DNA of 64,000 bases from an uncultured Oscillospiraceae bacterium (GCA_947587485.1 CANPXZ010000001.1:89683-153682), one strand, 5' to 3'. Shown: positions 12,001 to 21,000, numbered from the stretch's first letter. Numbers are program-made.

Positions 12001-15000
12001 CCGACATAGTCCTGGCCGTTATAGCTCAGGTTGGCAAGGCGGCCGGCGCACTTGTACGGCTTGCCCGCCGCGCTGGTGCACTCGATCTCGATCTCCTCGC
12101 CGTCGAGCAGCCTCTCGACCTCCTCGTCCGTAAACCGGTGCCCGGAATACACCCTCTTGGGATGCACCTCCTCGCCGTTCCACTCGCCTTCAAAACGCTC
12201 CGCACGTTCCTGGTCTGCCATGATGTTCAGCTCCTTTCTCATTTTCTCGCCGTTCTGGCGCATTGCTTCGATGTCGTCGATCACGAATTTGGCGACTTCG
12301 GAGAGACAGGTATTGGGGTCTTTCTTGCCCTTGGCGATCTCCGCCATGTCGGAGAACACATGGGTCGTGATCTCCAGAGTCCCAATGTGGGTCCCGGGCA
12401 GCAGGCGGTAGCTCATGTCGCCGTACTCGGTCATTGAGATCTTGCCACGGGAATCCTTCATCAACGGGTACTTCGCCTTGGGGGAATCGTTGGTCACGTC
12501 CGCGTAAGTACTGGTCCGCGTGGCGCCGGTCCCGATGTCGGCCTTGTCCAGCTGGCTCATCAACCACTTCATCGTGGGCGCCTGCGGCTTCGGCGGGAAG
12601 CCCTTGTAGACAAACGAATCCGCCGTCGGCCCGAACCCTGCCCCGGAATCATCGTCGGAATCGTCGTTATAGACGGCTTTCCAGCCGGCGAACACCGGGA
12701 TGTTGACGTGGGACTTGAAGCTCGGGTACTTCTCCAGATGCGCGTCCTGGGCATCATACTCATAGTCCTCGCAGAGCATGGCCAAATAAGACCGGGCGAG
12801 GATGTTGTAGATCTCGGGGCCGCATTTGCCATAGGTCACCAGCTCATCCAGCGTCTTCGGGACGTTGGGGCCGGGCCGGTTCGCGCCATGGGCCATGCCC
12901 TCTTTCACAAAGCCTGCACGGGGCGTGCGGTGGGTCAGGTATTTGACGTCGACGCCGACCACACCGGCGATCTTGTCGACCAGCGGAAGCAGCTCGTTGA
13001 ACTGCTCAGGGGTCACGCCCTTGTCCTCGGTACGCGGGTAACTCACCACCTGGGCCTCGTACATCTTCTGGTACACCGCCAGGACGTCCTTCGCCTTGAA
13101 ACCCTTGGAGGAGAGCCGGGCCGACAGTGTGGCCAAGTCGATCAGCTTGGGCGGCGCGGATTTCTTCCTGGTCTTCGGGTTCACGACCACCGGGGACGTG
13201 GAATATTTGCCCTTCGGTACGGACTTCTCGTCCGGGAACGTCGGCTCATTGGGATCCGAGAAGACGTTCTTGTTGGCGTCCTGGAACCGGTACTGGAAAT
13301 ACGGCGTAGCCTTGTAGGCAGCGACCTTTGCAAGCTGGTCCCCGACCAGGAGGATCATCGCGGACTTCAGGCGCCCCTGCCGCAGAACGGACCGACCGTC
13401 GCCGCACTTTGTGGCGATGCGGGTGAACTGCATGCTCAGCATGTCCCACTTGGCCCGGTACAGCGCCTTGATGTAATCCGGGTCATCCGTCACGCAGTTG
13501 AAGCGCTTGCGGTTCTTGAACGCCTTCTGGAGCTCCTTCGGGCTCTCATCCGCGAAGAACATGCGGGAGATCTTCTTTTTCCCGTCGAACCCCAGGTTGA
13601 TGATGATTTCACCGGCCAGCAGCGTCCCTTCGCCGGAAGGGTCATCATCCGTCGCGATGCAGATCTCGTCGCATTTCAGGAACACCTTGCGGATATCATC
13701 CAGGACGTCGTTCACATCATCCTGCTTCACATACTTCCAGGAAAACTCGTCCGGATCCCAGGGCAGGTTGTCCAGCGACCAGTTCTTGTACTTCTGCATG
13801 AGGTTCGCGGGAACCTGTTTCTCCGGTGGCGCGAACTCATACAGATGCCCGCGGGCATTGCAGAGGACGAACTGCTCGCCGTTGAACGTGCCGCTCTCGC
13901 CGCCGAACGCCTTCTGCATGTTTCGCTTGGCGCTGGGCTTCTCAGCCAATATTGCGATCATAGGCTGTGTCGCTCCTTTCACATTAAAAATCCATAAAAG
14001 AAAACAACTTTATATAAAAGTGTTCGCTCTTGTTTTATTATAATATCAAAAGGAGCCACTGTCAACACCCTTTTGCAAATTTTTGCGAAGAAAGGCCCGC
14101 CCCGGTTTCCCGAAGCGGGCTATATGCAAATCCCGGGCAGGCTATACGCCGGCCTGGGATTTTATCACTTCCAAGGCATGTCGTCGAACCCGACCTTCTC
14201 CTCATCCGGCTTCTCCTCCTGGGCCTCGTCCTTGGACACGTCATCACGGTGCAGGAACCCGAGCAGCTTGGACATGGCGCCCTGCTTCTTCGGCTCCTGG
14301 ACGTCGGCGGCAGCCATACCATGCGGGGCGTTCTCCGGGTGCAGCGCGTCAAAGGCCTTGTAGGTGTCGGACAGGTCGGCATTGGCCTTAGACCACAGCT
14401 CCATGCTCAGCTGCTTGTTGTAGCCCATCTTTTCGCTGTAGGTCTGCTGATTGCCGAACACGGCCTCCGTGCCGAAGGCTTCGCGCATATCCTGGTGCAG
14501 GTGTCCAATGGCGTCCTGTTCCTTCAGGTTCAGGTTCAGGTTGAAATCCTGGACATGGTTCCCATTCGTAGTGAAGGTCGCACGGGACATCACCAGGTCG
14601 TTCAGCAGCTTCTGCTGGTCCTGCAGCGCCTTGCGCTTGTCGTCATGGTTGATGTCATACACGACATGCTGAACATTTTCCACCAGGTGGGACGGCTCCT
14701 TGCGCTCCTGGACGTTGTCGCGGACCGCCTCTTTGGCAATGGTCACAGCGGAAGGCAGGTACCCCGGGCAGTTCAGGTTGTAATCCTTGCACTGGGTAGC
14801 CATCTCCTGATTGATGGCGATTAGGACCGGCCGGCGCTCATCCATCGGGATGCCCCGCATGTTCAGGTCCTGCGCGATCTGCACAAAGCCGTTGTCAAAG
14901 CTGATCGGCACGTTGAACGCCCGCTCCATATCCTGGTTCATGCGGGCCAGCATGCCCCACTCCTGCTTGGTCATGTCAATGTGGGCATTGTAAGGATTCA

Positions 15001-18000: not shown

Positions 18001-21000
18001 GGTCTCCCGCATGGCCAGCATCGCGTAGTCGTGGTCAAACGAAAACTCCGCCAATTTTATGGACGGGTCGACCATATCCTCAAACCGGGTGTACATGTCA
18101 TGTGCCAGGTCAGAATTGCAGGCCCGGAACGTATCCCGTACACTTCCAAGGGCGACAACGTCAAGATCATCGAACTCGATCTCGCCGCCGCGGATCGACG
18201 TCGCCGTCCGCTCGTTATTCCAGACATCGATAGACCCATGGGTGTCCCAAATGTACTGGACCAGCTTTTTGGCTGCATCCATCATCCCAACGTCATCCCG
18301 GTTGTAATACGCGTTCAGGCACTCGTCCCGGAACGCGTCACGCGGGTCCACTGATTTATTTTTCGGCAAAGGGCATCACCTCTTCCTTAAAAAAGCCGCC
18401 CCGGGCCGCCAGGACGGCGTATTTGCATCGCGTCACACGCTCGCGTAGTCAGGGCCGCTATTTTCGGCCTGCTGCTCGGCGTTGCGGTCGGTCTGTTCGG
18501 CCAGCTCGCGCATCCTGCGCACGGCGTCGGACTCAACGACCTTCTCGGCCAAGTCGACGATAACGCCGGGCACGCCGGTGCTCTCCGCGACCTTGTCCAT
18601 CAGGGACCCGGTGACGTCCAACAGGTCCTCAACACCCTTGCCGGCATCCGGGCCGTCATCGGACAGCGCCTTCGCCGCCTGGTCAAGCCACGCCTCGTCG
18701 GGTTCCTCGTTGTTGTACGAGGCCAGGACATCCATGTCCTCCTCACTGGTATTCAGTGCATCCTCGCTGCCGGCAGGCGCCGTATAGTCATCATCGATGA
18801 TCTGGTTCTCATCCGCCATCTCGCCCTGGCCGTCCGGGTACGGGTCGTCCCCGGCATCCCCGTGGGCGTCCTCAAACGCAGATTGATCAACGCTGTCAGG
18901 GTCATATCCGTCCACATATTTCGGGTCAACCTCGGTCGGATTATTTTCTTCAAGATTGTCCCAGCCATTCTTGATGGCTTCAAACCCCTGCAGCACAGTG
19001 CCGGAAATACCGGTATCGCCGATCAGCAAGCCAAGCGCGCCGCCGACACCAAGGGTGGCAAGCCCTTCCGGGGATGTCACGGTATCCTTGATCGCGCTCC
19101 AGGTATCTCCGGCCTCCGCCCCGATGACCTTAACGCCCTTTCCGAAAACCTTACCGAGCGCGCCAACACCTTTGGACAACGCCTCCCTCTTCGCCTGGGA
19201 CGCGGCTTTATTGGCGGCCTTCTCGCCCTCGACCATCTCCAGGGCCTCAGCGAAAGAAATGGGCCCGTCGGTCTTTTCCATCGTGTCGTTGGCCACATTC
19301 TCCGCATTGTATTTCTTCGCGTTCTCGTCGGCCTCCTTGACGCTTTTCTTCAGTTCCTTCATCGTCTCGCCAAACTGGTTGACAGACGTGGTATATGCTT
19401 CATACCGGTCGGCCTCGTTCTGCTCGGCGTTCCGGCCCTGGGACGCGCTCTGCGCGAACGCGGCCTGCTCCTGGCTCTGGCGGGCCTGGCTCTCGCCGGT
19501 CAGTTCGGCCTCACCGGTCACGACCTGCTTATTGACATCGGGCATGCTGACATCTCCTTTCCAAAACCTGTTGCTATATATTATATACGCAGAAAGGGGG
19601 AACGTCAAGACGTTTCCCCCATAATTTACTGCGGTTTCTTGTCGCCGTTGATGACCTTGCCGGTAAAATTCTTCCCGATCTCGTCCAGCCACTTGGCCTC
19701 GCGCCGGCGCTTGATCAGGTCAGCAGCCGCGTCGTCGTCGCCGGACTCGCCGTAATCGGCCTCCGCCATGACGTCCTCGCCGCCGGACATCTCATTGTAG
19801 CCGTCCTCGTCATCCGGAATATCGTCGACATAAGGCAGGGACTCATAGCCATAATAATCGTCATCGTCGCCCTCGTCCTCATCATTGTAATCAGGCTCAT
19901 CAGGTTCCGGATCCTGGTACACCTGCTGGCCGTATTTCGGCTTGTCTGACGCGTAGGTATAAGGCGAGGCGGCCTTTTTGAATTTTGCCTCGTAGATCCG
20001 GCGCCCGTCCCGGCGAGAGATATAGTCCGTGGCGTCGTGGATCAATTCCAGGATCGTAAACGAATTCCCGCCGGCCAGCACGTCGACCGTGTCCAGCGGC
20101 TGCCCCGGGCCCATGACCGGCGTGTAGGACCCCATGCCGTTGAGCATGGCGTACACGGCCGCGATCGTCGCGCTGTCCACCTTCCGGTCCAATTTCCCGA
20201 ACAGGGACGACATCTTCTGGTACAGGTCGAACATGGCGTCCAGGCGGCTGGAATTCTCCGCCACCATGTCCCGCATTTCCATCACGGCACTGTTCCCAGC
20301 CTTGCCGGCACGCGCAGGGGATGCTGTCTCGTCCAGGTTCCCGGTAATCTCTTTCACCCGGGCATAGGCGTCGTCAGACGGGAACGAGACTTCTTCAGGC
20401 TGGCCAAAATACCAGAATAGAAAACCTGTCATGACCTCATTCTGGTTGGCCTTCGCAGACAGCGCCCCGACTTCCTGCTGCACGCGCCGCAAAAGGACCG
20501 TCGGGATCGTGATCGTGCTCATCTGGCCCTTGGCGGACGGCTTCGTGACCTGCGACAGGCCCCGTTTCAGATTCGCCCGGTTATTGATGATCACTAGCTT
20601 CTGGACGTTGCGCACGGCCAGGGCGTTGGACAGCATCGCCGCCAGGCGGCGCTGATACTCTGACGCGCTAGGCCGCTTTTCCAGGCGGTCGTCGTCCTCG
20701 TCCTTTTCAGGATCCGGTTCCTGCTGGACGGGGCGCTTCCCCCGGGCAATGTTCATGAGCCGCTGGGTCTCCGCATCGTTATTGGACGACCCGCTGCCGG
20801 CAGCAACACGCAGCTCATGTTCCAGGGACGGATCCCCGATATTGTTGTCAACAAGCTCCTCGGCACGGTCGCGCCGGATGGCTGTCTCAGCCTTATCACG
20901 GATCGCCTTGACGGCCTCCCGCGCCTCGTCCCGTTCTTTTTCCTCGTCCTCCGGCTTCCAGCTCCGGAGGATCTCCGATACGTCAAGGCCTGGCATATGT

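Follow-up and report, generated by a model that had tools for sequence, protein, structure and literature searches.

Introduction

The C-terminal tip of SSB (DDDIPF) and the C-terminal peptide of FtsZ are hub-binding peptides carried on disordered acidic tails. Conjugative type IV secretion systems (T4SSs) move many proteins by means of C-terminal or internal signals (PMC11288057, PMC8406263), and effectors of the Dot/Icm system have acidic, Glu-rich C-termini that dock on DotM (PMC5802825). MinD attaches to membranes by means of an amphipathic helix at its C-terminus (PMC8155659). Here we describe a short C-terminal element, referred to as the tag, and the acidic tail that follows it in four consecutive genes of an apparently plasmid-like element. 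The genes lie in a 64,000-nucleotide stretch of DNA from an uncultured Oscillospiraceae bacterium (GCA_947587485.1 CANPXZ010000001.1:89683-153682); the whole of this stretch is called the window.

The initial annotation of this DNA described the tag as a motif carried by otherwise different proteins, from which a modular signal was proposed. Judged from their sequences, the four genes are instead paralogs in tandem that make up a single orphan family, and the tag closes a module of about 170 amino acids (aa) that all four have in common. The four proteins share the tag because it was inherited along with this module; by the same comparisons, it is shared by descent and was not picked up by unrelated proteins. 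Descent is the ordinary explanation for a shared motif, and it corrects the step from a motif on different proteins to a modular tag.

Results

Four tandem genes of one family

The genes are four consecutive open reading frames (ORFs) on the minus strand, designated D, C, B and A. The orthologs at locus L001 are written A', B' and C', and E' is used in the same way for the neighboring protein E.

17182-18369, minus strand: gene D, 395 aa; N-terminal module, RyR-domain extension, tag and acidic tail
17323-17520, minus strand: RyR domain (PF02026) within D, residues 284-349
16628-17176, minus strand: gene C, 182-aa ORF with a called product of 179 aa starting at 17167; module, linker, tag and tail
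15588-16631, minus strand: gene B, 347-aa ORF with a called product of 340 aa starting at 16610
14165-15649, minus strand: gene A, 494-aa ORF with a likely start at 15607

The four genes have the codon composition seen in real genes of the window, with a GC content of 0.74 to 0.83 at third codon positions (GC3) versus 0.34 to 0.39 at second positions (GC2); for gene D, the values are 0.74 and 0.39. Their products, whose net charge lies between -20 and -27, contain no transmembrane (TM) segments. The family was found in three lineages: the window itself (identical to L002-L004), L001 and L005, and L068 and L069. Gene D is missing from L001 and L005.

The proteins had been sorted into two different paralog pairs. 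The pairing itself was borne out, as A and B are paralogous across both halves, including the tag (E values of 3e-17 and 3e-11), and C and D are paralogous over about 150 N-terminal residues (E = 3e-9). The separation of the pairs into different families, however, did not hold. Residues 170-259 of B matched residues 8-96 of C in a BLASTP comparison (E = 5e-8), the orthologs B' and C' gave a collinear alignment of 161 columns running through the tag, and a MAFFT alignment of seven sequences was collinear from the AA..LV..W/F..KG helix, via an h-x-L-D/N-L hairpin, to the tag. To avoid circularity, we employed tag-free hidden Markov models (HMMs), from which the last 45 to 50 residues had been cut, and searched them against 982 six-frame ORFs of the window and L001. 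The model built from C only found D (E = 7e-10) and B (E = 1.6e-7), and the A/B model found C (E = 8.8e-8) and C' (E = 3.4e-6); nothing outside the family was matched among the 982 ORFs. Comparison of the A/B alignment with the C/D alignment by hhalign returned a probability of only 5% and pointed to the AA..V..W..KG helix.

The shared module is collinear in all four proteins. Its core of about 130 residues consists of two helices, a beta-hairpin, a helix and a long helix, and a disordered linker follows. Each family member carries exactly one tag, near the C-terminus. C, the minimal member, comprises nothing but module, linker, tag and tail. In B, an extension at the N-terminus takes up about 170 residues and includes the LQRRLYxxGFxC region; it is followed by the module at residues 170 to 300, approximately, and then by the tag and tail. 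In A, the N-terminal extension is followed by a partial copy of the module (residues 169-277), a full copy (residues 323-443), the tag and the tail; two matches to the module HMM and a weak internal repeat (E = 0.005) were detected. A is best described as B plus a partial internal duplication of the module. The similarity among the four C-termini is thus essentially explained by local duplication that included the C-terminal segment, an account the initial annotation had named as fatal to its own reading, but the duplication is old and not recent.

In D, the module is followed by an insertion of about 200 residues bearing the RyR domain, and then by the tag and tail. The RyR match exceeds the gathering cutoff (Pfam E = 1.3e-9; 38.6 bits versus 27.4), an ortholog of D was found (P0007), and the domain is recorded for D orthologs too. 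A segment of D at residues 155-178, approximately (17830-17905, minus strand), RFDKVEFPKELDGMVDILAIDMAG, aligns to GFKKEESPAYQKLMDMAG, which is the linker plus tag of C. Possibly this is what is left of an older tag that came to lie inside the protein once an RyR extension and a further terminal tag had been gained, although the alignment is short for such a conclusion.

Tag and acidic tail

The tags, taken as 14-residue windows, and the tails are as follows; the scores are those against a position-specific scoring matrix (PSSM) of the tag.

17263-17304, minus strand: tag of D, KEQSKAMGKLMRMI, 39 bits
17185-17262, minus strand: acidic tail of D, 26 aa, net charge -8, contains LDFCGYPDDDDEIECE
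16688-16729, minus strand: tag of C, KEESPAYQKLMDMA, 36 bits
16631-16687, minus strand: acidic tail of C, 19 aa, net charge -7, ends in EDVDFGIGM
15651-15692, minus strand: tag of B, PKKQGAFAKLMGMI, 41 bits
15591-15650, minus strand: acidic tail of B, 20 aa, net charge -3, ends in QDEFKSF
14252-14293, minus strand: tag of A, PKKQGAMSKLLGFL, 36 bits
14168-14251, minus strand: acidic tail of A, 28 aa, net charge -6, ends in GFDDMPWK

The motif K-L-[LM] is therefore present where it had first been reported, 19 to 28 residues from the C-terminus and followed by an acidic tail with a net charge of -3 to -8. The tag helix spans 9 to 11 residues, is amphipathic and follows the pattern A-[FMY]-x-K-L-[LM]-x-hydrophobic-hydrophobic. 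The tail of 19 to 28 residues is rich in D and E, for example EAQEEKPDEE and GEGEGED; the two residues are mixed, and the sequences are few for defining a block. Near its end lies a [DE]-[FY] anchor, and an acidic-aromatic pair is seen at this place in all four proteins (GFDDMPW, DEFKSF, VDFGIGM and LDFCGYP). The ending of the C tail is conserved as DDVDYGIGM in orthologs, and LDFCGYPDDDDEIECE of the D tail becomes LDFCGTPDDEYE in the D ortholog.

Synonymous codons vary between the tag copies, and for this reason we conclude that it is the protein sequence that is conserved. On the same ground, we considered and rejected a signal in the DNA or RNA of the 3' ends of the genes. The sole DNA repeat over a tag is a 32-nt match between the tags of A and B (84% identity). 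In a five-sequence alignment across the paralogs, the best window was the nine columns of EPAFAKLMG, with a mean pairwise identity of 64% versus 24% overall.

The motif is kept in orthologs: in those of A, B and C at L001 and L005, and in those of B, C and D at L068 and L069. The tags are identical or nearly so across the three lineages (KKQGAFSKLMGFL, SPAYQKLMAMA, SKAMGKLMRMI and RGFAKLMGLL), and the core SKAMGKLMRMI of the D tag is unchanged in P0007. The tag is fixed although A and B of the window are only 43% and 54% identical to their L005 counterparts. In these alignments, the tag is the part of the family that is under the strongest constraint.

Predicted structure of the tag

C and B were modeled with AlphaFold2 (AF2) from input alignments of only 7 or 8 sequences. 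The model of C had a mean predicted local distance difference test (pLDDT) score of 77 and a predicted template modeling score (pTM) of 0.71. Means over 10-residue blocks were 72 to 98, mostly above 85, in core residues 1-135, and the elements were helices at residues 2-22, 26-44, 65-81 and 103-131 and strands at residues 45-49 and 56-61. The linker (residues 141-154) and the tail (residues 160-179) were below a pLDDT of 50. The tag was predicted as a separate low-confidence helix (residues 151-164) that is not packed on the core. In the model of B, the tag helix (residues 318-327) has coil on either side and lies within a segment (residues 302-347) below a pLDDT of 50. Together with the conservation in all orthologs, the prediction of an isolated helix in a disordered tail agrees with the earlier description of the motif as a C-terminal element fixed in position; the element is also under strong constraint, which makes a role in docking or recruitment reasonable. 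In these models, the tag looks like a short linear motif on an exposed, disordered acidic tail.

Alternatively, the helix could be purely structural, belonging to the family fold or to a homo- or hetero-oligomer interface, with no role in recruitment. Each member inherited the tag with the module, AF2 on 7 or 8 sequences may misplace a terminal helix, and the closely spaced or overlapping genes of these tandem paralogs suggest coexpression, which would make hetero-oligomers possible. On the other hand, the linker between core and tag is of low confidence, poorly conserved and variable in length. In D it extends to about 200 residues and holds a whole RyR domain, which makes a fixed intramolecular packing unlikely; A has two module cores and a single tag; and the core of C was modeled at high confidence without the tag. 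We consider a structural role unlikely.

An exposed, disordered peptide would also suit a function in stability or turnover. According to this explanation, the helix and tail would act as a degron, or as an adaptor-binding peptide, recognized by a protease or unfoldase of the AAA+ type, for example the Clp-like ATPase encoded at 46562-48244, and would time the abundance of the proteins. An ATPase with two AAA domains is indeed encoded on the element. However, its gene is about 30 kb away in a block on the other strand, no protease partner was seen, and its PADLOC matches are to defense-type ATPases. Moreover, Clp-type degrons are usually at the very terminus, and the C-terminal ends of A to D differ from one another. 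A function in turnover is highly unlikely on this evidence.

Amphipathicity and charge of the tag

The hydrophobic moment is 0.51 to 0.70 in all tags (best 11-residue window). The net charge is +2 or +3 in three of the tags (A, B and D) and 0 or -1 in that of C and of its orthologs. With moments of 0.55 to 0.70 and HeliQuest-type D factors of 1.2 to 1.65, within the range of MinD and FtsA sequences, the tags of A, B and D are compatible with membrane targeting: a MinD/FtsA-type amphipathic helix, here preceded by a flexible linker, would tether the paralogs to the inner membrane face near the transfer apparatus, and the tail would tune or mask it. The tag of C, however, is not cationic (D factor 0.16 to 0.48) but is conserved equally. 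Sequence-specific invariants such as K-L-[LM] are unexpected for lipid binding, and the helix stops short of the extreme C-terminus, with 19 to 28 acidic residues still to come after it, which, on such negatively charged carriers, disfavors anionic membranes. We regard membrane targeting as an unlikely but still live alternative. Docking on a protein is preferred to docking on lipid because K-L-[LM] and the hydrophobic face are invariant and the charge varies, and because both the tail and the carriers as a whole are acidic.

Scans for further copies of the tag

We scanned the window proteome, minus A to D, with the 14-column PSSM. The best match was RKKAGTMSKLLGLD (33004-33045), internal in an 845-aa protein, with 17.9 bits. 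None of 300 shuffles reached this score (mean top score 9.2, standard deviation 2.3, maximum 17.4). This is the segment that had been presented as a fifth copy. It is statistically unusual, but it is internal, and it is absent from the only ortholog of the 845-aa protein, P0013 (44% identity), in which the aligned segment is AEKARYREIEGMLGL and KKAGTMSKLLGL reads KARYREIEGMLGL. We treated it as a lineage-specific resemblance. Two weaker look-alikes, GALSKIF in a 280-aa protein and GALGKVFG in protein E, had no PSSM score and are not conserved: the former was rejected because the L006 ortholog has GGFQAVF at that place, and the latter because E' has unrelated sequence there.

Six-frame PSSM scans of the window and L005 detected the tag in family members only, at 28 to 41 bits. 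A scan of 62 topoisomerase-related loci (L006-L067) gave no match above 16.2 bits, and the matches were unrelated. Non-homologous carriers of the tag were thus found neither in the window and L005 nor in the 62 further loci.

The C-termini of the protein E family are a looser case. AVRRMREL in the window (18433-19545, minus strand), AMDRLNAA in L001 (890-1996) and FAKLLEAT in L006 (8961-9902) are each followed by an acidic tail of about 20 to 25 residues with a Y near the end, which makes them loose look-alikes of the tag. Protein E was undetected by the module HMM, and its resemblance to the tag is not significant alone.

These scans bear on the explanation that the tag is modular and was gained independently by unrelated proteins, namely the two pairs, the 845-aa protein and the look-alikes. 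The score of RKKAGTMSKLLGLD relative to the shuffles and the SFAKLLEAT of the L006 E homolog, with its acidic tail and Y, are in its favor. It is nevertheless scarcely credible and, in our view, largely refuted: A to D are homologous outside the tag, the motif of the 845-aa protein is internal and not shared by the ortholog, the scans detected no tag outside the family, and the resemblance in E is loose.

Distribution of the family

A BLASTN search of positions 14000-18500 against plasmid and phage collections returned no match. Except for the RyR domain in D, A to D had no match in Pfam, PHROGs or PADLOC, and NCBIfam, which was run on D only, gave none either. Pfam, PHROGs and PADLOC likewise linked none of the four to an anti-restriction, anti-defense or defense family (such as ArdA, ArdB, ArdC or PsiB). 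Word-indexed searches, which covered 5.8 billion proteins, brought back the family alone, with two clusters for A and three for C; the 845-aa protein also gave two clusters. An exhaustive HMMER search, in which a family profile of 450 positions was compared with 1.84 billion cluster representatives, gave nine matches, six of which were the family. The remaining three (P0009-P0011) are eukaryotic repeat proteins with 8 to 12 summed repeat matches and were judged spurious. Foldseek searches at E <= 0.001 detected nothing for the model of B in PDB or for that of C in PDB and BFVD; the module is thus a confidently predicted fold without a PDB or BFVD match. By these searches, the family is an orphan, previously undescribed and extremely rare.

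The sources are ENA assemblies, or a metagenome-assembled genome (MAG), labeled Oscillospiraceae and derived from rabbit ("Lapin"). The sequencing runs that contain the region are DNA only, from one rabbit gut metagenome.

Cassette borders and divergence

The array is bordered on either side by a terminator-like hairpin.

18395-18418, minus strand: terminator-like hairpin with a T6 run, between E and D; upstream border of the cassette
14095-14120, minus strand: terminator-like hairpin after A; downstream border of the cassette
14037-14065, minus strand: sigma-70-type promoter match, TTGACA-17-TATAAT (12/12), in an AT-rich spacer just upstream of the topoisomerase gene

The promoter match ahead of the topoisomerase gene shows that the cassette occupies the intergenic region that separates E from this gene. 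In L006, whose topoisomerase is 72% identical, the E homolog is directly followed by the topoisomerase gene, and the array is absent. Because of this absence, and that of D from L001 and L005, we regard the array as an accessory cassette of variable copy number.

The surrounding minus-strand block encodes, in order, the 845-aa protein, an RHH protein, a 229-aa acidic protein, an actin-like partition ATPase, a 1896-aa T-Q ester adhesin, a sortase, a second RHH protein, F, E, D, C, B, A, a Topo III-like topoisomerase, TraX, a YunG-like protein, the 280-aa protein, a 291-aa protein with two TM segments, a VirB4-like protein of 649 aa and a 1610-aa protein with seven TM segments. The genes are arranged as in a conjugation region of Gram-positive type borne on a plasmid-like element, although the assignment of a T4SS is soft. 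The VirB4-like protein (6108-8057, minus strand) matched NF045975 with an E value of 2e-8, far under the cutoff of the model, and is without a Walker A GK[ST]; a sequence search of PDB with it found nothing. It is 96% identical to the L005 ortholog and 70% identical to that of L006, and it may be a conserved but degenerate ATPase. Neither a coupling protein nor a relaxase was recognized within the 64-kb window.

Comparison of the window with L005 revealed identities of 88 to 96% for the sortase, RHH, topoisomerase, orf81, orf280, orf291 and VirB4-like genes. The corresponding values were 42% for E, 75% for C and, as given above, 54% for B and 43% for A. By this comparison, the cassette region is a hot spot of divergence within a conserved backbone, and the tag stays fixed there.

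Divergence between the window and L005 is mosaic. TraX (58%), the 1610-aa multi-TM protein (58%) and the YunG-like protein (60%) have strongly diverged too (window 1248-6080 and 10739-11536), and the gene of the 1610-aa protein includes a stretch of low GC content (0.44 at 4001-6000 versus about 0.58 elsewhere). Between the genes for the topoisomerase and TraX, L001 (7671-8396) and also L005 have a Fic-domain gene with a 61-aa ORF ahead of it. The Fic gene is absent from the window (compare 11543-11788), which makes this another variable accessory slot in the operon. Outside Clostridia-type MAGs, the closest relatives of the topoisomerase are in Actinomycetota (Arthrobacter, Rhodococcus, Kribbella and Microbacterium; 45 to 56% identity; L009-L031, L045, L047, L056 and L062), which hints at a pool of conjugative-element topoisomerases common to Gram-positive phyla.

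Other features of the element

A reverse transcriptase (RT) gene (42854-44161, plus strand) matches the defense-associated class UG27 of PADLOC (E = 1e-135). Just upstream of it are genes for a MoxR-type AAA ATPase and a VWA-domain protein (39336-40505 and 40542-42125), and the three are possibly a defense island on the plasmid-like element. A UvrD-like helicase (50209-54029, plus strand) is apparently split, its N-terminal domain ending at 51861 and UvrD_C lying in an ORF at 53148-54029, with an ORF for a LAGLIDADG homing endonuclease (52231-53076) between the halves. This arrangement could be an invasion of the intron or intein type, or three separate genes. Four further ORFs, given below, together indicate a replication and establishment module as is typical of large plasmids or phage-plasmids.

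49220-49891, plus strand: UDG-superfamily glycosylase
53963-54619, plus strand: ORF with an LPD24 "large polyvalent protein associated" domain
54637-55473, plus strand: DUF3799 PDDEXK nuclease
56059-57630, plus strand: D5-type primase-helicase

Discussion

We propose, tentatively and at a little under an even chance, that the tag is a short peptide by which all four proteins dock on one partner encoded by the element, possibly its transfer machinery. According to our model, the helix and the acidic-aromatic tail would together form a bipartite short linear docking motif, and through it every paralog, whatever its body, would reach a single site on that partner. This cassette family diverges fast, and what it conserves best is an exposed peptide, which is the signature of a docking motif. 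The partner would most likely be a component of the transfer machinery, since the cassette lies within an apparent conjugation-type operon, with a presumably sortase-anchored adhesin, and the bodies of the proteins evolve much faster than the backbone; the literature on secreted substrates points in the same direction. The tag would then bring these cytoplasmic, acidic proteins to the mating channel, perhaps so that they are passed on to the recipient.

Several points weigh against this proposal. In the window, a T4SS is only thinly supported, by a weak VirB4-like match and by the genes for TraX, the Topo III-like topoisomerase, the sortase, the T-Q ester adhesin and the two- and seven-TM proteins, and no coupling protein or relaxase was recognized. 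In the F-like pED208 system, those C-terminal signals that as a rule promoted transfer are net positive (PMC11288057), and the last 25 residues of A to D are net negative. The conservation statistics rest on few independent sequences, as there are only about three lineages. Finally, the low-confidence helix could equally be an oligomerization element, or an intramolecular element misplaced by AF2.

The more specific possibility is that the helix and tail form a sequence-defined signal, for recruitment and translocation, that is recognized by the substrate receptor in a conjugative T4SS of Clostridia (Gram-positive) type, and that the bodies of A to D are interchangeable effector or establishment proteins injected into recipients with the DNA. 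This version is improbable as matters stand. To our knowledge, no sequence signal for protein transfer in Gram-positive conjugation has been defined so far; if true, the tag would be the first, and it would be acidic instead of basic. The tag is of modest interest as a candidate docking or recruitment motif, and would be of more if a partner, especially a T4SS substrate receptor, were demonstrated. Should the partner be the transfer machinery, the tag would offer a testable handle on protein recruitment and transfer in Gram-positive conjugation.

Comparison with known systems

Like T4SS substrates, A to D are soluble proteins with a short C-terminal element that is predicted to be disordered, encoded on an element with conjugation-type genes; like T4SS cargo, their genes are accessory and fast-evolving. 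They share with the Glu-rich class of Dot/Icm effectors (PMC5802825) an acidic stretch near the C-terminus. In contrast to the described substrate systems, the host is of Gram-positive type (Oscillospiraceae-like) and the window has no recognizable coupling complex; the type IVB coupling complex DotL/M/N was not detected in Pfam and NCBIfam scans of the larger ORFs of the window. The known conjugative signals are mostly net positive or hydrophobic (PMC11288057), whereas the tails of A to D are net negative (-3 to -8), and the tag has a sequence-specific helix with K-L-[LM], which T4SS signals lack.

The tag is like the helices of MinD and FtsA in being a short amphipathic helix behind a flexible linker. 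In A, B and D it also has a basic look, KKxG...K.L, with a hydrophobic moment and charge comparable to those of MinD (PMC8155659). Unlike the helices of MinD and FtsA, it is not terminal, as a 19- to 28-residue acidic tail follows, it is not positive in C, and it contains invariant residues. In addition, A to D are unrelated to ParA/MinD or actin-fold ATPases.

With the SSB and FtsZ peptides, the tag and tail share a conserved peptide ending a disordered acidic region, an aromatic or hydrophobic anchor and, as proposed here, the use of one peptide type for docking. The differences are that the sequence is another, that the motif is bipartite (the helix plus the distal [DE]-[FY]) and that it is found on a set of paralogs and not on one hub protein. 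Neither an SSB/OB fold nor a tubulin fold was matched by Pfam in A to D; for B and C, AF2 gives the fold helix-helix-hairpin-helix-helix.

Variable accessory or anti-defense arrays and polyvalent-protein domains (PMC5512222) provide the last comparison. Unlike the former, A to D matched no family of Ard, Psi, SSB or LPD proteins and nothing in PADLOC. They nevertheless resemble these systems in being small acidic proteins of unknown fold, encoded in a variable and fast-evolving cassette within a conserved transfer backbone, and an LPD24 domain, as in polyvalent-protein systems, is encoded elsewhere on the element.

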